Assembly (NCBI GenBank): GCA_964415335.1
Contig: CAYPZN010000006.1
Span: forward strand, 11,657-75,656
From: an uncultured Crocinitomix sp.
Lineage (GTDB): Bacteria; Bacteroidota; Bacteroidia; Flavobacteriales_D; Crocinitomicaceae
DNA: 64,000 bases
Direction: 5' to 3'
Shown here: in pieces, positions 2,563 to 31,690 of the stretch
How the letters are laid out: every line of letters begins with the position of its first letter
Position numbering within the stretch: the first letter of the stretch is position 1
Made by a program: the position numbers and the translations under genes
Notes under the pieces: generated by a model
Databases searched by the model: none
Seen by the model: only the letters and a program-made list of their open reading frames with translations
Told to the model about the DNA's origin: nothing

Positions 2563-2832
2563 TGGGTAATAAATTTAATTTTGCCTACTCTATTTGATTT
2601 TCAGCTACCTCATTTATCAGCTAAATTAAAGTAAAAAGATAAGTGCTTTTGTGCAAATTCAATTGCGTTAACAGTTTATTCAAATGTGCTCATTTTTGGT
2701 TCAAATACGTTTTTTAAAAAAATCTAATCGACTTAATTTGATTGTTAAACTATAAATTGAATATCTTTGTCGTGGGTTTTCTGAAAAATGTTATTCATTG
2801 ATTTTACTAATTAACCCTACCACTCAGTTTAT

Positions 2833-15355: not shown

Positions 15356-16339
15356 CTATTTACTATAAATAAGTCGTTCTTGAAATACACTTCCAAATTC
15401 GTCTCTTATCATTAATAAGTATAGGCCTTCGCTTAACTGATAATCTTTTAAGTTTAGTGTGTTTGAATTTTTAATTGCCAAAAGCTGATTTCCTGAAAGG
15501 TCAAATAACTGCATTTCTTCAATCAAACTTTCTGTATCAATGAATACCATCCCTTTAGATGGGTTTGGATAGACTTGAACTTTTGACAGAGAATTCTCAA
15601 ATAAACCTGCCGGATTACTTTCATTGATTACCGCTACTCCGTCTAAATCAAATCCTCCACTTTCAAAACTAGTTGGGTATGGATCATTGATCAAGTTTCC
15701 TTCGCTATCTTGTGTTCCAAATGCCGGATCTATCGATCCAACGACATCAATTATTCGAACGTAATTTATTTGATTTAAATCAATTTCAGTTGAGTCAATA
15801 ATATCTTCTAAGTCAAATGGTGTTCCAAAACCGCCTCTATATTTTCCTGCTAAATTGTGAATAAGGGTTGCGTCCGTATCGGCAAAAGTTCCAGTTTGTG
15901 AATCAACTGGTGTATTAGAAATTGAAGGAATTCTCACAAAACGACTACCATCTGAGCTTACTTCAACATGGGCTAACTCAAGATAACTATCAGAAAAACT
16001 ATTTTCGAAAACAGCAAAATCAAACCCTTCTCCATTTCGAATTGGAAAAGGAAATGTCAATGTAATTGAACCTTGATCTCCTAAACTAACTACTGCAGTT
16101 GGAGAGCCATCTGCAACGCCTATTGCTTCACTTGAATCACCAAATGCCGCTAGACCATCACCTGAGCTTGCTATATCTGCAAATCCTCTTTCAAATGCAA
16201 TAACTTCAGATGCCCAATTAACAATTATACTAGAGTCTTTATCAATTGCAGTTGATCCTGGAAAACCAGCAGGAGGGGCAAATTGAGCCAAAAGTGAAGT
16301 GGATAAAAGAACAGTTATTATTCCTGTGAAAAGTTTCAT
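15356..16339 (-). CDS. Secreted protein with a T9SS type-A C-terminal domain; last gene of the riboswitch-controlled operon
   Basis: 327-aa ORF. Signal peptide MKLFTGIITVLLSTSLLAQ. Core motif FDFAVFENSFSDSYLELAHVEVSSDGSRFVRIP. Tail VQVYPNPSKGMVFID...LSEGLYLLMI. It starts 4 nt after the stop of the upstream gene. Confidence 0.7.
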   Translation of the reverse strand: MKLFTGIITVLLSTSLLAQFAPPAGFPGSTAIDKDSSIIVNWASEVIAFERGFADIASSGDGLAAFGDSSEAIGVADGSPTAVVSLGDQGSITLTFPFPIRNGEGFDFAVFENSFSDSYLELAHVEVSSDGSRFVRIPSISNTPVDSQTGTFADTDATLIHNLAGKYRGGFGTPFDLEDIIDSTEIDLNQINYVRIIDVVGSIDPAFGTQDSEGNLINDPYPTSFESGGFDLDGVAVINESNPAGLFENSLSKVQVYPNPSKGMVFIDTESLIEEMQLFDLSGNQLLAIKNSNTLNLKDYQLSEGLYLLMIRDEFGSVFQERLIYSK

Positions 16340-16343
16340 ATTT

Positions 16344-17402
16344 CTAATTGTTAAAAATTAAATTATTTGCATTCAACCCTCCTTGAAACTCAAACTGAAA
16401 AGTACCAGTTAAGTCGTATACTCTAATTGTAGAGGAATTAACATATCCATTAGCATCAACGCAATAGATTCTATTTTTTACGAGATCAATATGAATTCCA
16501 AAAAAAGTTTCAAAACCACTTCCATCAATCAACCTAGTTGGATCGGATACTTCGGTAATTGTATTTATTCTGAAAACTCCTTTTTCTTCAGTATCATAAT
16601 AATAAAGCCAATCACCGGCAGTGGTTATCGTAGAAATTGGTTTCTCTATTGTCTCTAATACATTTTCAGTAGAAGGATCTATCCGCATCAAAGCAGGACT
16701 AATATCTGAATGGTTTCCACGAGAAAGCAAATAAATTTCTCCTTCTGAATCTAGATCGATTTGAGCCGCATTAATTCGTGTTTCAAACGTTGAAATAACT
16801 GCTTTTGTGTCCATATCAATTACTGATATGGTTGAGTCGTAAACAGGAAAGTTTAATCCTCCAGAATTTACAACGTATAAACGATTATCAATCGTCAATA
16901 AACCATCTGGATTAGCACCAACCTCAACAATGGCTTCAATGGTATATGTATCTAAACTAATTACAGCAACTGTTCCATCAAAATTACAAACGAATGCGTT
17001 TCTTCCATATACTTTTACCCGGCGTGGAGACCGTCCATTTGCACCATTAAAAATAGGGATTTGAGCAACTGTTTTTAGCGTAAATCGCTCAATAATTTCT
17101 ACTTGACTAGAAACATCTACTGCAATGATTATATAATCTTCTCCATCAAGGCTATAGGCTTCAAAATCATTTGCCGTATCACCCAAGCCTCTTCCGTTTT
17201 CTGTTTGAAAAACTTGTTGAAATTCTTCCCCATTTTCATTTGAGTAAAAAGATAAAGTTGCATTGTTTTGCTCGAATAATCCCTCGTTAAGTGCAACAAT
17301 TCCATTTTCAAATTCAGCTGGATTTTCAGGTGGTTCTGGTGGTGTTTTTTTACAGCCTAAAATGACTATAACTACAAATATTATTAGTGTTTTTATTTTC
17401 AT
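16344..17402 (-). CDS. Surface lipoprotein, YncE/BtuG-like beta-propeller
   Basis: 352-aa ORF. Lipobox VILGC. The motif GIVALNEGLFEQNNATLSFYS is followed by repeated propeller-blade-like segments (..YVVNSGG.., ..ISVIDMDT..). Its start overlaps the TonB-receptor stop (ATGA at 17399-17402). The family assignment is from memory of the Bacteroides BtuG/DUF5074-type proteins. Confidence 0.65.
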   Translation of the reverse strand: MKIKTLIIFVVIVILGCKKTPPEPPENPAEFENGIVALNEGLFEQNNATLSFYSNENGEEFQQVFQTENGRGLGDTANDFEAYSLDGEDYIIIAVDVSSQVEIIERFTLKTVAQIPIFNGANGRSPRRVKVYGRNAFVCNFDGTVAVISLDTYTIEAIVEVGANPDGLLTIDNRLYVVNSGGLNFPVYDSTISVIDMDTKAVISTFETRINAAQIDLDSEGEIYLLSRGNHSDISPALMRIDPSTENVLETIEKPISTITTAGDWLYYYDTEEKGVFRINTITEVSDPTRLIDGSGFETFFGIHIDLVKNRIYCVDANGYVNSSTIRVYDLTGTFQFEFQGGLNANNLIFNN

Positions 17403-19393
17403 TTGTCAAAAAAGTATTTTAATCGCAATTGATAATGTCTCCCTGGAACAGGAAAGCTACGAATTGTCTGATAATTATTGTCTAAAATATTGTTTGCATT
17501 TAACGCTATTCTCAATTTTGATTTTTGCCAATTCACCGATTTTGCCAAACCGATATTTATATCTGTATACGAAGGAAGGTAATTCGCGAAAATATTTTCA
17601 TTCAAGGAGTATCTCCCACTACTATATAGGGCATTAATACTAAATTTATATCCACTTCGATCAATACTAATTCCACTGGTATTGGTATAAAATGGAGTAT
17701 AAGGAATTTGATCTCCAAAAGTAATCCCATTAATATCTGTGACATCAATGGAAGAGTTAAATGCTTGATTTGTAGTCAAATTAAATTTTGTTTTACCGCT
17801 TGAAAGCGTCAATAAAGCTCCAATATCAACCCCTCTAATTTCAGTTTCTCCGATATTTTGAATACTCCAATTAAATAAGTCCTTCGTTGGGATTGCAACT
17901 ATTTTGTTTTTAACTTCATTGTAATAGGCATCAACTGTAATTTCGAAAATTGCCTTTTTTCTTTTAACACCATAAGTCACTCCCAAATTAAATAGGTTTG
18001 CGTCTTCTGGTTTTACATCTGAATTTCCAATAAAGTTATAGTAGAGATCGTTAAAAGTCGGTAGTCTAAAGGTATTTTTGTAAAATGCTCTTATTCTAAA
18101 ATTTTGTTTCTTTATTGGAAGGTAAGCAAAGGATAAGAAAGGAGAAAATCTGAAAAAAGTTTGCTGATTGGATGTATTATTTTGAGTGAATTCATCAATG
18201 ACATATTGGGTTGAAAAATTTCCTTGAATTCTCAATTTTTTAATCCAGGTTCCGCCGCCCAAAACAGTATTACTTTGTAATCGAAACGGATTTGCACTTA
18301 CATCATTTCCAACCAATGTATTTTGTAAAAGATCAGATCCTAAAAAGACTTTCTCTGTTAAAAAACGAAATTTTCTGGTCAGAAAAAAACCTCCTCCAAC
18401 GTTTCTTTGATCGTATTCAGAATCAATAAAACCTTGTAAATTAAAGAAATTAGGATCTAAATAACGTGTATAGGTCGATTGATATTTAAAATTGGTATTC
18501 AACACCCATTTTTTGACAGTATAACTATGATTTAAATTGAATCGCCAGTCTGTATTCCACAATTGCTGATCGTTAGAAGGGTTGAATAAAACAGCAGCTC
18601 CAGGCAATTCTTGTGTATTTTCATTAAAAAATAAACTTGCAGTAACTTTATGCTGTTTCGATTGATAACCAACCAATCCTCTTAATCTATAATTAAACAG
18701 GCGTGTATTTTCTCGAATTAGGTCAGGAGAATCAACTGCCTGTTGAGGAATTCTAAAACGAAAAACACCATTTCCAAAACGGGTCAGGCCTTGAAAACCA
18801 ACATAGAATTTTTTTCCTATGTTCGTTTGAATATAACCTCCTTTTTCATAAGCATTAATTGTCGTTGAATTTGAATAGAGTCCTATCCGTAATGCTTTCG
18901 GTTTTTTTGAAAGCACAGAGTTCAATGAAATCGTATTGGCTTGTGTAAACGCAGATGCAGTTGCGTTTTTATCTAGGCTTTGTCCTGAAGAGAAAGCTAC
19001 TGATTCTAATCCAAACAATTCAAAAGAAGAGAGATTAACAATTCCACTTTGCACGTTTGGAATTTGGTTTCCATCCAATTCAACAGTGGTATGCCCAGCT
19101 CCTAAACTTCTGAAAGAAACGGTTTTGATTCCTCCTATTCCACCGTAATCTCGCAATTGAATTCCAGGAACGTATTTTAACGCTTCTCCAACATCAGTTG
19201 CTCCTAATTCATCAATCTTATCTGCGTTAAATTTAAAATGTGGAACCGGAGAAATGATTACTGCTATTCGTAAAACAGTATCTCTTTTGGCAAAAACGGG
19301 AATTTCTTTTAACGTTTTTGTCGAATCTTGCCCAAATAAAAAGGGCATAAAAAGGATACAAAAGCTACTAAATATGAGTAATCTTAATTGCAT
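17399..19393 (-). CDS. TonB-dependent receptor, BtuB-like (cobalamin/corrinoid receptor by context)
   Basis: 664-aa ORF. Signal peptide, a plug region (..ELGATDVGEALKYVPGIQLRDYGGIGGIKTVSFRSLGAGHTTVELDG..), and a C-terminal barrel ending ...RHYQLRLKYFFDK. It lies downstream of a cobalamin riboswitch. Confidence 0.8.
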   Translation of the reverse strand: MQLRLLIFSSFCILFMPFLFGQDSTKTLKEIPVFAKRDTVLRIAVIISPVPHFKFNADKIDELGATDVGEALKYVPGIQLRDYGGIGGIKTVSFRSLGAGHTTVELDGNQIPNVQSGIVNLSSFELFGLESVAFSSGQSLDKNATASAFTQANTISLNSVLSKKPKALRIGLYSNSTTINAYEKGGYIQTNIGKKFYVGFQGLTRFGNGVFRFRIPQQAVDSPDLIRENTRLFNYRLRGLVGYQSKQHKVTASLFFNENTQELPGAAVLFNPSNDQQLWNTDWRFNLNHSYTVKKWVLNTNFKYQSTYTRYLDPNFFNLQGFIDSEYDQRNVGGGFFLTRKFRFLTEKVFLGSDLLQNTLVGNDVSANPFRLQSNTVLGGGTWIKKLRIQGNFSTQYVIDEFTQNNTSNQQTFFRFSPFLSFAYLPIKKQNFRIRAFYKNTFRLPTFNDLYYNFIGNSDVKPEDANLFNLGVTYGVKRKKAIFEITVDAYYNEVKNKIVAIPTKDLFNWSIQNIGETEIRGVDIGALLTLSSGKTKFNLTTNQAFNSSIDVTDINGITFGDQIPYTPFYTNTSGISIDRSGYKFSINALYSSGRYSLNENIFANYLPSYTDINIGLAKSVNWQKSKLRIALNANNILDNNYQTIRSFPVPGRHYQLRLKYFFDK

Positions 19394-19412: not shown

Positions 19413-20954
19413 TTACTTAATAGTTAATTTTTGTTTCGAAATTTCACCATTAATTGTCGCATAGACAATGTAAACACCTGTATCAAACCTTGATACATCA
19501 ACAGTATTCATTCCTTGTGCAAAAGTTTCGTTTAATAGTACTCTTCCTCCTAAATCTACGATTTTCAAGATTGCTTCTCCTTCAAATTGTACATTAATAA
19601 ATGTACTCGCAGGATTTGGATAAATTGCTAGTTCATTTGCAATTTGTTCATCTATTGATTCAACAGCAGTTGCATTTACACTTAAACTTGGTGGTGTAGC
19701 TGGATTAAATCCAGTATACGAACAACCAAACCAATCACCATCCGACATTTCGGTTCCTATTCCAGTATTTGCATACCATCCACCAACATTCGTTGCACTC
19801 CAAGTTGACCAGAAATTTGGCATTCCTCCTAGGCCTTCAAATCCTAAAGCGTAGATAATATCATTTAAGAACCCTCCTGTTAAGTCAATGTCTAATCCGT
19901 AAGGTTCATAATCGTTCAATGCAATCAAAACATCTTCTGCGCTAATTGTTTCTTCATCAAAATTATATCCAAATGCAAACGACTCTCCAGGTAACCATTC
20001 ATTAAAATCAATTACAACTACTGCCCGATTTGTTCCTGTGCCAAATAAAAAATCGAGAGTACTAATTACTAAATCAGCAGAATCAATTGCAGGAATTGGA
20101 TAAAATGGTCTTCTTGGTGGCCATTCATCATAAGAAACACCAAACCAATCACCATCATTAATTGTCATTCCTAATCCTGTGTTCATTGTCCAATCTGACA
20201 AATTTGTTCCACTCCATGTCCCCCAAAAACCTGGCATTCCACCAATTCCTTCAAGCATATTGTATTCAATATCATTTAAGAACATATCTGCATCTACGTT
20301 TAAGTTTACATCTGCAGCATCAATATCTGCTATCATAGTTCCTGCATCTGTAGTTCCATCAAATCGATAACCCCATGCGTAAGTTGCTATTTCACCAAAA
20401 CTAGATGTAACAAAATCTGTAACAAAAACGGCTGTATTAGCACCTGTCCCCACCCAAAACTGGATGTCAGCTTCAGAAAAGCGACTTGATTCATAAGCAG
20501 GAATAGGTTCTCCAGGAATTAAAGGAGGCATAAAATCAGTGTAAGAAAATCCAAACCAATCTCCGTTATTTAAAACTTCTGGCAGTCCTGAATTTGCTAT
20601 CCAATCTGTATCAGCAGTTCTACTCCATGTGCCCCAAAAATTAGGCATCCCTCCGATTCCTTCATGTGCATTATAAGTAATGTCTGATAGAAAGCCCATA
20701 GCCGTTACAAAATCCAGCTGATCTTCATCTGCTGCCACTGCGGCAAGCATATCTCCTCCAGTTACAGTTGCCGAAGCATCAAAAAGAAATCCCCACGCAT
20801 AAGCAGAATCTGGTGTTCCATCAATAAAATCGATAACCATAACTGCTGTATCCGGCCCTGATCCTACATAATAAATTAAATCGTTTTGTGTGAATTGGGC
20901 TTTTCCCAATAATGAAATGAGTGCGAACACTCCTGTGAGTAAAATTTTTCTCAT
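19413..20954 (-). CDS. Secreted protein with three tandem ~115-aa repeats plus a T9SS type-A C-terminal domain; first gene after the cobalamin riboswitch
   Basis: 513-aa ORF. Signal peptide MRKILLTGVFALISLLGKAQ. The repeats fall at about residues 27-140, 165-277 and 301-416. They share G(S/T)G.(D/N).AV.V.DF...(Y/F)A(W/F)G(F/Y).FD...FL(S/N)DI.Y...EG(I/L)GGMP.FW(G/S)TWS...W..N(S/T)G......GDWFG.SY. Tail LAIYPNPASTFINVQF...FDTGVYIVYATI. Confidence 0.75.
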   Translation of the reverse strand: MRKILLTGVFALISLLGKAQFTQNDLIYYVGSGPDTAVMVIDFIDGTPDSAYAWGFLFDASATVTGGDMLAAVAADEDQLDFVTAMGFLSDITYNAHEGIGGMPNFWGTWSRTADTDWIANSGLPEVLNNGDWFGFSYTDFMPPLIPGEPIPAYESSRFSEADIQFWVGTGANTAVFVTDFVTSSFGEIATYAWGYRFDGTTDAGTMIADIDAADVNLNVDADMFLNDIEYNMLEGIGGMPGFWGTWSGTNLSDWTMNTGLGMTINDGDWFGVSYDEWPPRRPFYPIPAIDSADLVISTLDFLFGTGTNRAVVVIDFNEWLPGESFAFGYNFDEETISAEDVLIALNDYEPYGLDIDLTGGFLNDIIYALGFEGLGGMPNFWSTWSATNVGGWYANTGIGTEMSDGDWFGCSYTGFNPATPPSLSVNATAVESIDEQIANELAIYPNPASTFINVQFEGEAILKIVDLGGRVLLNETFAQGMNTVDVSRFDTGVYIVYATINGEISKQKLTIK

Positions 20955-21080
20955 CCTTTTAAAATTTTGCCTTTAATTTTTTGGCGTGTTAATAATAAAA
21001 AGGAATAGCAACGAAGTATAAGGGTGTCAAAAGCACCTCCTAAACTTTGCTTTTATCCCGAAAGCTTGTTTTATTAAGAA

Positions 21081-21236
21081 TTGGCAGGTCTTCTGACTTA
21101 CTCCTTAAGATTTAAACCCTTCCCGTCTAGATAACAGACAGTGGTAATGTTTAAACGTTTTGAAGCTTACAGCTGCGGGAACAGTTCAAGATTTTCACTT
21201 GATTCCCATTTTAATTCCGACAATGTCAGAAACCAA
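21081..21236 (-). promoter_or_regulatory. Cobalamin (B12) riboswitch
   Basis: The minus-strand RNA reads UUGGUUUCUGAC...GGGAAUCAAGUGAAAAUCUUGAACUGUUCCCGCAGCUGUAAGC...CCACUG...CGGGAAGG...AAGUCAGAAGACCUGCCAA. It contains the B12 box AGUCAGAAGACCUGCC (21083-21098) and the conserved GGGAA / GUGAAAAUC / CCCGCAGCUGUAA / CCACUG / GGGAAG core elements. P1 is formed by UUGG..UCUGAC pairing with GUCAGA..CCAA. It lies 126 nt upstream of the first operon ATG. Confidence 0.85.
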
Positions 21237-21245
21237 AACTTGGCG

Positions 21246-21253
21246 CAAAGATA
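21246..21253 (-). promoter_or_regulatory. Bacteroidota-type -7 promoter box (TAnnTTTG) for the riboswitch operon
   Basis: The minus strand reads TATCTTTG, about 10 nt upstream of the riboswitch P1 stem, with a TTG-containing stretch about 20-25 nt further upstream. Confidence 0.5.
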
Positions 21254-21420: not shown

Positions 21421-22047
21421 CTAAATAAATTTGTTTTTCAAAGCAAACTTTACCAAACCAGCCACATTCTTAACTCCAGTTTTACTCAATAAATTTTTAC
21501 GGTGTGTTTCAACTGTGTGTTTACTCACAAAAAGTTTATCTGCAATTTCATTTGTACTATATTCTTCACAAATGAGTTCTAAGATCTCTTTTTCACGACG
21601 CGTTAAATGAATAGACGTTGAAATTTGTTCAGCATTAAAACTGTTCATGAAAATTTGCTGTGTCTCTTGGCCATAATACTTTTCACCAGCCAAAACGGAA
21701 TCTATTCCTTTTAATAATTCTTGTTTTGAAGTCGTTTTAAGCAAATAACCATCTGCACCTATTTCGAGTGTTTTTCGAATGTAATTTTGGGTATCATGCA
21801 TGGTTAACATGATGATTTTAATGCCTGGAAAATTAGATTTAATTTTTTCTGTTGCAGCAATACCATCTAGCTCAGGCATGGTAATGTCCATTAAAATAAC
21901 ATCTACTGCTTTTTCGTTTAACAACTGGAGGAGTTCGTTCCCATTGCTTACTTCGGCAACAATTTCATATTTTTCGTCATTGTTAAAAAAAGAGCGAATT
22001 CCTTCTCTAAACAACACATGATCATCTGCTATGGCTAATCGAATCAT
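21421..22047 (-). CDS. NarL/LuxR-family response regulator (REC + LuxR HTH)
   Basis: 208-aa ORF. IRLAIADDHVLFREG, DVILMDITMPELDG, IIMLTMH, GYLLKT, and C-terminal LTRREKEILELICEEYSTNEIADKLFVSKHTVETHRKNLLSKTG. It overlaps the upstream kinase gene by 4 nt. Confidence 0.9.
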   Translation of the reverse strand: MIRLAIADDHVLFREGIRSFFNNDEKYEIVAEVSNGNELLQLLNEKAVDVILMDITMPELDGIAATEKIKSNFPGIKIIMLTMHDTQNYIRKTLEIGADGYLLKTTSKQELLKGIDSVLAGEKYYGQETQQIFMNSFNAEQISTSIHLTRREKEILELICEEYSTNEIADKLFVSKHTVETHRKNLLSKTGVKNVAGLVKFALKNKFI

Positions 22048-23861
22048 AAAGGCAAGTTAATAATGATGATTACTCCACGACCAATGACCGTATCATAATC
22101 AATTGTACCATTCAATTTGTTTATTCGGTTTTGTAAACTCTGCATTCCTAACCCATTATTTTTGACTTTTTCTAATTCAAATCCAATTCCATTGTCTTCG
22201 TAAATAATATTAAGGAGTTTTTCTTGTTCATTCAGTTGTAAATCAATTTGTGTAGCATTGGCGTGTTTTAATGTATTACTTATTAATTCTTGGATCATAC
22301 TGTAAACTTCTTGTTCTTGACTTGCATCCAATTCGTACAATGCTTTCGACATGAAAAAATCCATTTGAATCTTTCCGCTTTGATTTAATGTTTGCGTTAA
22401 ATCGGTCAACGCCCCTCTCAATCCTAAATCAGCTAATTTACCCGAAACAAGGTCATGCGAAATCCGCCTAACATCTGTAGCTGCTTCGGTTAATGTGCTC
22501 TTTAATTTTTCAAATAATGTTCTGTTTTCCGTTTTTAAATCGTCAATTTTTTGATTAATTGCATTAAAATGAATTTGCGCAGCTGCCAATGTTCCTCCCA
22601 AACGATCATGTAAATCTTGCGCGATTCTTTGGCGTTCAACATCTTGTCCTTCGAGCATAGCTGCATAAGATTTTGCTTCTTGCTCTTTCAGTAAACGATC
22701 AACTTCTTGGTTTTTAACATCTAATTCTAGCCCTTTCAATTTTCCTTTTTGACGAAGGTTTCGCAACCAAATAAATACAAGTATTGCAATTAAAATAATC
22801 CCAATGACTAAACCATAAATTGTTTTGGTTTTATTTTCATTTTGCAGTCCTATTTTGGCATTTTTTGCTTCCTCAAGATCTAGCTGTTGTTCTTTTGCAT
22901 TAGTATCGAATTTAACTTCAGCAGCAGCAATAGCTGCAGCTTTCTCAGCAGAAAAAACTGAATCTTTATAGGCGATATAATTTTGATACATGGCAATTAC
23001 AGAATCAGATTGCCCTTTAACTGTATAATTTTCAGCTAACCCTAAATAAATATTATCAAGGTATCGATTGTTTCCTCCTACGGTTGCAGAGTTTAGTGCT
23101 TTTTTATAATAATGGATTGAGGAATCTGTATTTTCTAGGTATTGGAAAACTGTTGCTATTCCAATTAATGGGACAGTTGCTTTAGGGAACAAATTCATTT
23201 GAAAAAAAGTAGTATATGATTTTTTATAAAACTCAATTGCTTCATTATTATAATCTTGATAGTATAATACTTCGGCAAGATTAGCATAGCTATCTGCAAT
23301 ACCTATAGAGTCATTTAAATCTAAATAGTCTTCTTTTGCTTTACTATAGTAAAAGTAGGCGCTATCATAGTTTTCTAAATCAATATACCTTGATCCAATT
23401 GCATGATAAACAACAGAAGTATATCTGGGATTATTTGATTCTTCTTTTAGTTCTTTAGCTAAAAGAAGATATTCAAGCGCTTTCTCATCTTCGCCTATCG
23501 TATGAAGTATTTTGTTCAATGTTTCATAACTAGAAGCCAAATAATAGGGGTAATTTCCTCTTTTTCTTAGATCAATCGCTTCTTCAATATATTTTTGTGC
23601 CTTTTTTATGTTGGCTCGCTTTATTTCTGCATTCGCTGCTAAATTAAGGAAAGAGGACTGAAAGAAATTAGACCTTTTGTATTTGTCTGCTAAAATTAGC
23701 GAAACATCCAATACACTATCCGGATTTGATTTTAACCTCTTGTTTAATTCGGAAATTTTTTCTTCCAGAAAAAGCGAATCTTTATTAAAATTAACAGCCT
23801 TTGCATCAATAAAATTTAATGCAAAAGCTGTTATCAAGAATATCTTGGTAAATCTTCTCAA
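22044..23861 (-). CDS. TPR-sensor histidine kinase (HisKA_3 + HATPase)
   Basis: 605-aa ORF. Signal/TM, TPR-like repeats, and a TM segment (IYGLVIGIILIAILVFIWL). It then carries RQRIAQDLHDRLGGTLAAA (HisKA_3 H-box) and an ATPase block (EDNGIGF...GLGMQSLQNRI). Confidence 0.85.
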   Translation of the reverse strand: MRRFTKIFLITAFALNFIDAKAVNFNKDSLFLEEKISELNKRLKSNPDSVLDVSLILADKYKRSNFFQSSFLNLAANAEIKRANIKKAQKYIEEAIDLRKRGNYPYYLASSYETLNKILHTIGEDEKALEYLLLAKELKEESNNPRYTSVVYHAIGSRYIDLENYDSAYFYYSKAKEDYLDLNDSIGIADSYANLAEVLYYQDYNNEAIEFYKKSYTTFFQMNLFPKATVPLIGIATVFQYLENTDSSIHYYKKALNSATVGGNNRYLDNIYLGLAENYTVKGQSDSVIAMYQNYIAYKDSVFSAEKAAAIAAAEVKFDTNAKEQQLDLEEAKNAKIGLQNENKTKTIYGLVIGIILIAILVFIWLRNLRQKGKLKGLELDVKNQEVDRLLKEQEAKSYAAMLEGQDVERQRIAQDLHDRLGGTLAAAQIHFNAINQKIDDLKTENRTLFEKLKSTLTEAATDVRRISHDLVSGKLADLGLRGALTDLTQTLNQSGKIQMDFFMSKALYELDASQEQEVYSMIQELISNTLKHANATQIDLQLNEQEKLLNIIYEDNGIGFELEKVKNNGLGMQSLQNRINKLNGTIDYDTVIGRGVIIIINLPL

Positions 23862-23877
23862 GATTGGTTTTAATTAT

Positions 23878-24309
23878 TTATAATTCTGGTAACACAAATG
23901 GGTGATTTTCCGGGTCAGTTGAAACCACTTTCTTCTTATCTATATTTCCACTTGAGTCAATTCTCAAAAATCGCAAAAAATAAATCTCATGATTACTTGT
24001 GATACTATCAAATTGTGCATTTCCTTTGAATGAACTTCTATTTCCAGAAGAAGAGTCGTTTCCAAAAACAACTTCAATTTCCAGAACATTATTTATTACT
24101 TGAGGATTATATTTAAAAGCTTCTAGTTTTTCACCTTGAGCTGCATCAACATGATAATCAAAACCATATGGTGGGTTTGATGATTGATACTGGCTTGTAG
24201 GAAAGTTTACTGTATCGCTAATTAAATGAATATCCCAACCATTTGGTGAAACAGTCCCTGCTTGTCTTGTAGGATTTTGAACTGGGATAACTACGGTCTT
24301 TACTGACAT
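23878..24309 (-). CDS. Hypothetical cytoplasmic protein; first gene of the kinase/regulator operon
   Basis: 143-aa ORF with no signal peptide and no motif I recognise. Its stop is 16 nt upstream of the kinase start. Confidence 0.5.
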   Translation of the reverse strand: MSVKTVVIPVQNPTRQAGTVSPNGWDIHLISDTVNFPTSQYQSSNPPYGFDYHVDAAQGEKLEAFKYNPQVINNVLEIEVVFGNDSSSGNRSSFKGNAQFDSITSNHEIYFLRFLRIDSSGNIDKKKVVSTDPENHPFVLPEL

Positions 24310-24525
24310 AATAATTGTTTTTAATTAATAATATATTTGTTTGTTCTTGACAAAATTAGGTCATAGAAACCCTTTACAACTAGCTACAAATCGCCAAACT
24401 GATATCCCTGAAAACAATGATGGTTTGAATTTTTGAACTATATATAATACCAAATATGGATATTTAAATTATGAATTGCAAGTTTATAATTACCCTTTAC
24501 TTTACAACTATTATACTGAATACAT

Positions 24526-25194
24526 CTACAGTTCTACAAATTTGTTGCGGAATGCAAAGCGAGCTAAGCCAATTGAGTTTCGAGCACCTGTTTTTGTAAG
24601 TAAGTTTTTGCGGTGAGAAGCTACAGTATGTTTACTAATGAATAGTTTTTCTGCAATTTCTTCTGTATTGTATTCTTGGCAAAGCAATTCTAATGTTTCT
24701 AATTCTCTCCGGGTTAATTGCACTGCACTAATCATATTATCGGCATTAAAGCTATGCATAAATGTTTTTTGAACGGCTTCTTGATAAAATTGATTTCCGC
24801 TTGATACTGCTTCTATTCCATTTAGTAATTCTTCTTTTGATACAGTTTTTAATAAGTAACCATTAATTCCTGCTTCTAATGATTTTCGAATATCATCATG
24901 GGCCTGATGCATGGTCAAAATAATGATGGATAATTTCTCCAATTTCCATTTTTCTAACAGCAATACCAATTCTTCTGTATCCAACGCCAAGTTGTTTAAG
25001 TCAATTAATAAAACATCAATTTGTTTTTCTGACAATTGATCAAATAGTTCTTTTTGAGTAGCCGCCTTAAAAACAATGTCGTATTGTGCTTGCTTCTGAA
25101 AAAATGCACAAATGCCTTCGTTATGAAGCCAATGATTGTCTGCAATTGCCAATTTAATTACATCTTCATTTTGATTCTCTTCTTCTATAACCAT
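24526..25194 (-). CDS. Orphan NarL/LuxR-family response regulator, paralog of 21421-22047
   Basis: 222-aa ORF. IKLAIADNHWLHNEG (DD becomes DN), DVLLIDLNN (acceptor Asp retained), IIILTMH, GYLLKT, and HTH LTRRELETLELLCQEYNTEEIAEKLFISKHTVASHRKNLLTKTG. No adjacent kinase gene. Confidence 0.85.
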   Translation of the reverse strand: MVIEEENQNEDVIKLAIADNHWLHNEGICAFFQKQAQYDIVFKAATQKELFDQLSEKQIDVLLIDLNNLALDTEELVLLLEKWKLEKLSIIILTMHQAHDDIRKSLEAGINGYLLKTVSKEELLNGIEAVSSGNQFYQEAVQKTFMHSFNADNMISAVQLTRRELETLELLCQEYNTEEIAEKLFISKHTVASHRKNLLTKTGARNSIGLARFAFRNKFVEL

Positions 25195-31300: not shown

Positions 31301-31304
31301 AAAA

Positions 31305-31690
31305 TACAGTAAATCTATAAGCCGGATTCTGTTTTTCAATCAAATGATTAAAAATCTTGTCATTTATCTCGTTCTAAAATCACTTTTAGAATCAATCCAT
31401 CTACCCTCCAAGATTGGCCGAGTAAGCCTCAAACCTTGGTATACATGATGTTTCAACTCATGAGGTTTACCATGCCTTTTAAATCACTTTAAAAGCGGTG
31501 AGCTCTTACCTCACCTTTTCACCTTTTCCTAATAATTCATATCCATAAGGAAATGTATTGTTAGGTAGTCTATTTTCTGTGGCACTTTCTGTTTCTATTT
31601 TATCAATAGAACCTTCCAGTTAGGAAGCATGTTACTCTGTGTTGCCCAGACTTTCCTCTATTAAAAAATAGCGACAAGACGATTTACATT
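31305..31690 (-). ncRNA. rnpB: RNase P RNA (bacterial type A)
   Basis: The minus strand contains P4 5' GAGGAAAGUCUGGGC (revcomp of 31646-31660 region), GUGCCACAGAAA, GGUGAAAAGGUGAGGUAAGAGCUCACCGC, GGUAAACCUCAUGAG, GGGUAGAUGGAUUG, and P4 3' ACAGAAUCCGGCUUAU. P1 is GUAAAUC (31681-31687) paired with GAUUUAC (31309-31315). A TATCTTTA near-consensus -7 box sits just upstream (31695-31702). The ends are approximate to within ±10 nt. Confidence 0.9.

Follow-up and report, generated by a model that had tools for sequence, protein, structure and literature searches.

A riboswitch-controlled Crocinitomix protein with three transcobalamin-beta-like repeats as a candidate corrinoid-capture protein

A stretch of 64,000 nucleotides of DNA from an uncultured Crocinitomix sp. 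(contig CAYPZN010000006.1; the whole stretch is called the window here) carries a gene behind a cobalamin riboswitch at 19413..20954 on the minus strand. It encodes a protein of 513 amino acids with a signal peptide, three repeats that resemble the beta domain of transcobalamin (TC) in the manner of SLBB/DUF4430 proteins, and a C-terminal sorting domain (CTD) of the type IX secretion system (T9SS). Judging from the predicted structure, distant homology and gene neighborhood, we consider it quite probable that this is a riboswitch-controlled, T9SS-exported corrinoid-capture protein with three modules, which supplies the B12 uptake pair BtuG-BtuB. A preliminary description of the gene had noted the repeats and proposed that they bind corrinoids. 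Its observation is confirmed, and the computations support its interpretation.

B12 is a keystone shared nutrient. The competition of Bacteroidota for it is an active field, which rests on BtuG, BtuH, BtuJ, BtuK, and BtuL of gut Bacteroides. The locus described here points to a further class of accessory binder, one that is not described in the B12-uptake literature searched.

Results

The protein is built from three repeats of about 137 residues. Repeat 1 covers residues 19–156 (20487..20900, minus strand), repeat 2 covers residues 157–292 (20079..20486, minus), and repeat 3 covers residues 293–431 (19662..20078, minus). All three are delimited by hidden Markov model (HMM) envelopes; repeat 1 is further defined by its structural model and the matches of that model to TC beta domains, and repeats 2 and 3 by their similarity to repeat 1. 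The three colinear stretches seen earlier, at residues 27–140, 165–277, and 301–416, are the cores of these units. The similarity between the repeats far exceeds chance: in BLASTP, repeat 1 matches repeat 2 with E = 5e-38 (48% identity) and repeat 3 with E = 7e-29 (42% identity). A MAFFT alignment of the three has 44 invariant columns, which reproduce the shared motif given in the preliminary description. Of 32 positions conserved in the wider family, 31 are kept in repeat 1, 29 in repeat 2, and 26 in repeat 3.

The protein is equipped for export at both ends. Residues 1–19 (20898..20954, minus) form a predicted Sec signal peptide, MRKILLTGVFALISLLGKA, with the cleavage site placed before QF; the peptide was read from the sequence, and its cleavage site is inferred. 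It is hydrophobic and has no lipobox cysteine, and in most homologs the domain begins at AQF. No lipobox cysteine is found in the N-terminus MRKILLTGVFALISLLGKAQF, which accordingly lacks the signal peptidase II (SPII) lipoprotein signal of BtuG, BtuH, BtuJ, and BtuK. The T9SS tail noted earlier is a type A sorting domain at residues 444–513 (19416..19625, minus), recognized by PF18962 at residues 444–512 (40.9 bits, threshold 27, E = 2.5e-10) and by TIGR04183 (41.6 bits, threshold 23, E = 8.7e-11). The protein thus combines the C-terminal sorting domain and the N-terminal Sec signal of T9SS type A cargo.

A single-sequence AlphaFold2 (AF2) model of the whole protein was uninformative, with a predicted local distance difference test score (pLDDT) of 32, and an alignment-based model was required. 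With a domain alignment of 54 sequences (A3) as input, AF2 models repeat 1 with a pLDDT of 94.7 and a predicted TM-score (pTM) of 0.90. The model contains strands at residues 11–13, 17–24, and 33–40, a helix at residues 48–58, and strands at residues 62–67, 70–76, 79–82, 87–94, and 114–121. The TC-like clade of the SLBB superfamily is defined as a beta-grasp fold with a hairpin inserted after the helix, and a role in bacterial B12 scavenging was predicted for it in 2007 (Burroughs et al. 2007, PMC1796856). The order of elements in the model, which is strand-strand-helix-hairpin-strand-strand-strand, fits this definition (PMC1796856). The hairpin that is the signature of the clade is assigned to strands 62–67 and 70–76, directly after helix 48–58, by element order and not by residue-level superposition.

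The preliminary description had likened the C-terminal half of each repeat to the fold of DUF4430 and of the TC beta domain, and a Foldseek search of the PDB with the repeat 1 model bears this out. Ranks 1–19 are all beta domains of TC (human, bovine, and rat), intrinsic factor (IF), or haptocorrin, or the entry 3u7z, with probabilities of 0.97–1.00 and E = 2.6e-3 to 2.5e-2. The TM-score normalized to the target is 0.68 for the isolated human TC beta domain (5np4, 5no0), and the alignments to TC beta domains span 111–118 columns. The entry 3u7z, at ranks 12 and 19, is a DUF4430 protein from Ruminococcus gnavus (RUMGNA_00854). From rank 20 onward, the matches are generic ubiquitin-like beta-grasp folds with E ≥ 0.39. 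None of the top 19 matches is a non-corrinoid domain, the kind of match that the preliminary description had set against its own proposal. A comparison with BtuH that it had put forward found nothing: neither BtuH nor BtuJ nor BtuK is among the 50 Foldseek matches listed, and homology to BtuH or BtuJ was rejected on fold.

At the level of sequence, the connection to DUF4430 (PF14478) runs through relatives. PF14478 matches 13 of 56 long members of the family (best E = 1.5e-15). Seven proteins with a match were examined (P0099, P0104, P0117, P0125, P0129, P0136, and P0141), and in each of them it falls within the C-terminal two thirds of a repeat instance. Against PF14478, whose gathering threshold is 23.8 bits, a single repeat of P0117 reaches 26.4 bits and the human TC beta domain 29.1 bits; the sequence used for the latter is 100% identical to 5no0 and 2bb5. 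The window protein does not qualify for membership. By this sequence model, the likeness to PF14478 suggested earlier is seen in divergent members, which match inside their repeats; the window's own repeats fall below the threshold. Because only other members of the family match PF14478, we describe the window protein as a divergent relative of DUF4430, linked through intermediates, and not as a direct member. In its repeat region, no Pfam, NCBIfam, or PDB sequence match was obtained with the protein, with single repeats, or with repeat profiles; only the T9SS CTD was matched.

Motifs of the family were placed against TC through PF14478 coordinates. The family helix T..dML..I lines up with STVEDVLKKA of TC, GFLxDIxY with PYLTSVMG, YWxTW with EFWQLL, and NGDWFGxSY with KDGETIELRL, and these four elements come in the same order in both. 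The near-invariant residues of the family, counted from the first residue of repeat 1, are F70, L71, Y76, G81, G84, P86, W89, T91, N103, G105, and W115. By element order, not by three-dimensional superposition, they sit in the hairpin, in strands 3 and 4, and in the connector before strand 5. These are the elements that contact cobalamin in transcobalamin (Burroughs et al., PMC1796856).

The gene stands at the head of a B12 uptake operon. A cobalamin riboswitch aptamer (RF00174) forms the operon leader at 21066..21252 on the minus strand; in an Rfam cmscan it matches the full model with 109.7 bits and E = 1.4e-26. It scores 190 bits with a covariance model (R1) that we built from five riboswitches, namely that of the window and those of four metagenome loci. 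The aptamer lies about 110 nucleotides upstream of the ATG of the repeat gene, on the same strand, and the repeat gene is the first open reading frame after it, as had been described. Next come a BtuB-type TonB-dependent transporter of 664 amino acids (17399..19393, minus) with plug and barrel domains, and a BtuG-type beta-propeller lipoprotein of 352 amino acids (16344..17402, minus) with a DUF5074 domain (PF16819). The best PDB match of the transporter is BtuB1 of B. thetaiotaomicron (8blw_A, E = 2.4e-78). Those of the propeller, whose N-terminus has a lipobox-like LGC, are BtuG1 (8blw_B, E = 1.2e-41), and BtuG2 and BtuG3 at around 1e-9. The identities of these PDB matches were checked in PMC10404256. 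Because the neighbors are homologs of BtuB1 and BtuG1, the locus is a BtuB1G1-type B12 uptake operon. The repeat gene therefore has the setting of a Btu accessory gene, that is, a cobalamin-riboswitch-controlled operon with btuB and btuG.

The preliminary description had proposed checking how often homologs lie next to RF00174, and the association proved to be strong. RF00174 is directly upstream in all four metagenome contigs recovered for the homologs found first. Among 79 genome loci, a sample whose extent depends on the search patterns and in which Flavobacteriales are over-represented, 75 have a full-length match to the R1 riboswitch model on the coding strand upstream of the gene or operon. 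Of the other four, L036 and L080 have no upstream DNA, L054 is cut inside an upstream btuB, and L075 lacks a riboswitch. In 70 of the 79 loci, the gene has a btuB homolog as a neighbor, usually followed by btuG.

Three further lines are more independent, namely relatives with PEP-CTERM anchors, giant proteins of Bacteroidales, and a fusion to a propeller. RF00174 precedes the PEP-CTERM relatives P0063 (Phycisphaerales, on two contigs) and P0053 (at the end of a three-gene unit), and so the association reaches another phylum. Another PEP-CTERM relative, P0061 (L087), has no riboswitch; together with L075, this makes the association strong but not absolute. The giants come from metagenome-assembled genomes (MAGs) of Bacteroidales and have 918 amino acids (L082, 5017..7773) and 2233 amino acids (L083, 709..7410). 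Each has four detected repeats and a domain like that of the 327-residue protein which ends the window operon. Each is encoded by a single-gene unit that follows a cobalamin riboswitch, and neither btuB nor btuG is adjacent; the giant of L083 is followed by a gene of the CobW family. The fusion was seen in one of the 56 members of alignment A6, which also matches DUF5074 (the BtuG-type propeller) with E = 8.2e-101. The loci of P0063 and P0053 are L084 (6190..8582), L085 (7765..8579), and L086 (740..1554). At L084, the gene comes after those of a prepilin-type N_methyl protein with a faint SBP_bac_10 match and of a 284-residue protein, which hints at a different uptake partner.

The family is large. 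When 1.84 billion cluster representatives were scanned exhaustively with HMMER, 1136 proteins passed E ≤ 1e-3, 383 passed E ≤ 1e-10, and 146 passed E ≤ 1e-30; family size is counted here as clusters at 50% identity. A word-indexed homolog search had under-reported it, with 12 and then 62 proteins, and the idea of a rare family with a unique triple array was dropped after the exhaustive scan. The preliminary description had called the three-fold array unusual; with more than 1000 clusters and one to seven copies, it is instead a recurrent architecture. A typical member has a signal peptide, one or two domains, and a T9SS tail, and PF18962 is found in 50 of the 56 long members. Members have one to seven matched stretches per protein and reach 2235 amino acids, and three-repeat proteins of about 510 amino acids recur (P0065, P0066, P0069, P0070, and P0072). 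Some family proteins also contain fn3, Big_9, or cadherin-like domains. In distant members, the C-terminus is a PEP-CTERM-like anchor, and one such protein, from a Phycisphaerales MAG, is annotated accordingly.

In the 79 genome loci, which are at species level, the copy number is one in 14, two in 49, three in 14, and four in two. The three-copy loci are the 13 closest to the window (Crocinitomix, Crocinitomicaceae MAGs and isolates, and a few MAGs named to order or class) and L022. The best matches to the window protein are in Crocinitomix genomes, at 62–71% identity, which by itself makes an origin of the window in the Crocinitomicaceae probable. Repeats 1, 2, and 3 of the window are each closest to the ortholog repeat in the same position (68%, 65%, and 61% identity), compared with 40–47% within the protein. 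The three copies thus arose long ago, and all have been retained. Duplications in other lineages are independent and younger; repeats 1 and 2 of P0079, for instance, are 69% identical.

Discussion

The window protein is, on the evidence of its modeled fold and of intermediate sequences, a divergent member of the transcobalamin-like SLBB/DUF4430 superfamily. We propose the following route for its action. At low intracellular cobamide, the riboswitch would permit expression of the operon, which would thus be B12-repressible. The protein would cross the inner membrane by the Sec route, and its C-terminal sorting domain would direct it through the outer membrane via the T9SS, after which it would be tethered at the cell surface or released. 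Each of the three beta-grasp domains may bind one corrinoid, which would give up to three sites per molecule, with contacts made by the hairpin that follows the helix, by strands 3 and 4, and by the connector leading to strand 5. BtuG, the lid lipoprotein, would take over the captured corrinoid, and BtuB, whose gene comes next in the operon, would import it. There is a precedent for a beta domain that binds in the absence of an alpha domain: the isolated human TC beta domain keeps cobalamin through purification and was crystallized with cyanocobalamin (CNCbl) and cobinamide (PMC5599065). Without an alpha domain, the affinity is perhaps lower, and tandem copies could compensate through avidity or capacity. 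Such compensation would explain the repeated, independent expansion of copy number.

Several points weigh against this reading. The high affinity of transcobalamin also requires the alpha domain, and no alpha-toroid partner is encoded at the window locus. The Foldseek E-values are modest (about 3e-3), and the sequence identity to TC is 9–16%. PF14478 matches neither the window protein nor its single repeats, even at E ≤ 10, and HMMER profiles of the repeat match no PDB sequence. When A3 or a profile of 364 repeat instances was compared with the mammalian TC beta domain by hhalign, the probability was about 1%, with a template of only two sequences and an effective number of sequences (Neff) of 1.27. 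Because this direct comparison is not significant, it is the predicted structure, together with the Pfam model as a bridge, that connects the family to the animal proteins. The 79 loci are not independent observations, because they are largely orthologous operons. Reviewers of the SLBB paper cautioned that members of the TC-like clade may have other ligands, and heme was proposed as the ligand of a Lactobacillus homolog (bioRxiv 10.1101/864751).

The missing alpha domain, which would be needed to complete a site of the transcobalamin type, also bears on a second explanation. The repeats could be a structural or docking element that binds nothing, such as a stalk or a holder of BtuG-BtuB or of the 327-residue protein, and the riboswitch would then reflect only membership in the operon. 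Other Btu proteins have repeated Ig or PKD domains as stalks (review PMC13616437), and the fn3, Big_9, or cadherin-like domains of some family proteins would suit such a role. The fold of the repeat, however, is specifically that of the ligand-binding TC beta domain and not that of Ig, and the residues conserved in the family fall in the elements with which transcobalamin contacts cobalamin. Versions with a single domain and only a T9SS or PEP-CTERM anchor are common, and some versions occur by themselves downstream of a riboswitch, with no btuBG in the vicinity. We regard a non-binding role as unlikely.

Corrinoid binding must also be set against the alternative that the domain binds some other soluble molecule in place of cobamides, for example heme, another tetrapyrrole, or a corrinoid precursor that lacks cobalt. 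The ligands of the SLBB superfamily are diverse (PMC1796856), and heme scavenging was proposed for a TC-like pair of L. sakei (bioRxiv 10.1101/864751). Against this stand the near-universal association with cobalamin riboswitches, which holds across two anchor types and at least two phyla, and the adjacent transporter and lid, which are BtuB1- and BtuG1-like. A ligand other than cobamides is, in our judgment, quite improbable. That the gene encodes a carbohydrate-binding or adhesin repeat protein, placed beside a B12 locus by chance, is barely credible: T9SS cargo is often a glycoside hydrolase or an adhesin with repeated domains, and the domain is aromatic-rich, but no carbohydrate-binding module (CBM) or adhesin family was matched in Pfam, NCBIfam, or PDB, no CBM fold is among the 50 Foldseek matches listed, and the riboswitch synteny is kept in about 95% of loci. 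For want of a supporting match, this last reading was rejected.

A corrinoid-capture protein of the proposed kind would share features with three groups of known proteins. Like the beta domains of TC, IF, and haptocorrin, the repeat has a predicted beta-grasp fold with a hairpin after the helix, and both are extracellular and associated with B12. Unlike those proteins, the window family has no alpha6/alpha6 toroid partner and occurs in tandem arrays of one to seven. Its domain is also longer, at about 137 amino acids compared with about 100 for TC beta; the connector that joins strands 4 and 5 is extended, and a Pro-rich linker is conserved.

The bacterial and archaeal TC-like SLBB/DUF4430 proteins (RUMGNA_00854/3u7z, Lsa1839) are likewise secreted or at the surface and are predicted B12 scavengers. 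Those described are mostly from Firmicutes and archaea, go with CbiO/CbiQ or energy-coupling factor (ECF)-type importers, often stand alongside a toroid domain, and have Gram-positive anchoring (PMC1796856). The window protein differs from them in its coupling to TonB-dependent BtuB-BtuG, its T9SS CTD, its tandem array, and its divergence below the Pfam threshold, and distant relatives of its family differ in being PEP-CTERM-anchored, one of them from Phycisphaerales.

With BtuG, BtuH, BtuJ, and BtuK of Bacteroides, the family shares the niche of a riboswitch-controlled btuB-btuG locus and a presumed role in extracellular capture and hand-off (PMC13616437). The fusion to a DUF5074 propeller parallels BtuGH of B. 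thetaiotaomicron. The folds are unrelated: BtuG and BtuK are propellers, BtuJ (DUF4465) is a jellyroll, and BtuH has a globular fold of its own. No homology to the BtuG/BtuK propellers, the BtuH domain, or BtuJ (DUF4465, PF14717) was found by Pfam or PDB sequence search or among the 50 Foldseek matches listed. The Bacteroides proteins are lipoproteins, whereas the window protein uses a T9SS sorting domain. The accessory proteins of the window operon thus differ from the BtuH, BtuJ, and BtuK lipoproteins of gut Bacteroides (review PMC13616437).

No description of the family was found in the literature searched on B12 uptake, DUF4430, transcobalamin-like proteins, and the T9SS together with B12. 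The wider proposition is that the family constitutes a Gram-negative class of B12-capture proteins, in which an alpha-less TC-beta-like module would bind corrinoids by itself. Arrays of one to seven sites, displayed or released by the T9SS or by PEP-CTERM/exosortase, would then act as a multivalent "corrinophore" or as a surface reservoir that feeds BtuG-BtuB. We give this an even chance. If true, it would tie the fold of animal transcobalamin and intrinsic factor to TonB-dependent B12 uptake in environmental Bacteroidota, and the co-occurring and sometimes fused domain of the 327-residue protein would be a second component of the same relay. It would also improve the annotation of B12 acquisition in marine and freshwater metagenomes, offer a source of small, modular B12-binding domains, and bear on the bacterial origin of transcobalamin-type binders. 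The family is common in environmental Flavobacteriales, comprises at least 1136 clusters at 50% identity, most of whose members go undetected by Pfam and NCBIfam, and is predicted to share the fold that animals use to transport B12 in blood and gut. Cultured carriers include Crocinitomix catalasitica ATCC 23190 and C. algicola.

Other Features of the Operon and the Window

The stop of btuB and the start of btuG overlap by four nucleotides at 17399..17402. This suggests translational coupling of transporter and lid, in line with the stable complexes that BtuB and BtuG are described to form in Bacteroides.

The last gene of the operon encodes the 327-residue T9SS-tailed protein (15356..16339, minus), which has a conserved but unclassified domain of about 230 amino acids. 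Outside its CTD, no match was obtained in Pfam, NCBIfam, or PDB, including a profile search against the PDB. The motifs of the domain are GxGxDFAVFENSF..LELAFVEVSSDG..FVRFP, NLAGKYR..YGTPFDL, and NDPYPT..SGGFDLD. Among the 79 related genome loci, about 37 have a gene of this type. In P0099, P0104, and the two giants of L082 and L083, this domain and a repeat array are joined in one protein. It may be a second surface domain of B12 loci that has no family match.

Immediately upstream of the riboswitch, at 21421..25194 on the minus strand, lies a group of regulatory genes. A sensor kinase with TPR and HisKA_3 domains is encoded at 22044..23861, two paralogous response regulators of the LuxR/GerE type are encoded at 21421..22047 and 24526..25194, and a gene for a product of 143 amino acids lies between the kinase and regulator genes. 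On the closely related contig L002, one kinase-regulator pair is also found upstream of the riboswitch. Elsewhere in the window, Rfam models detect a DUF805b RNA motif (RF02914) at 2582..2614 on the minus strand (40.8 bits) and the bacterial class A RNase P RNA (RF00010) at 31302..31690, also on the minus strand (239 bits).

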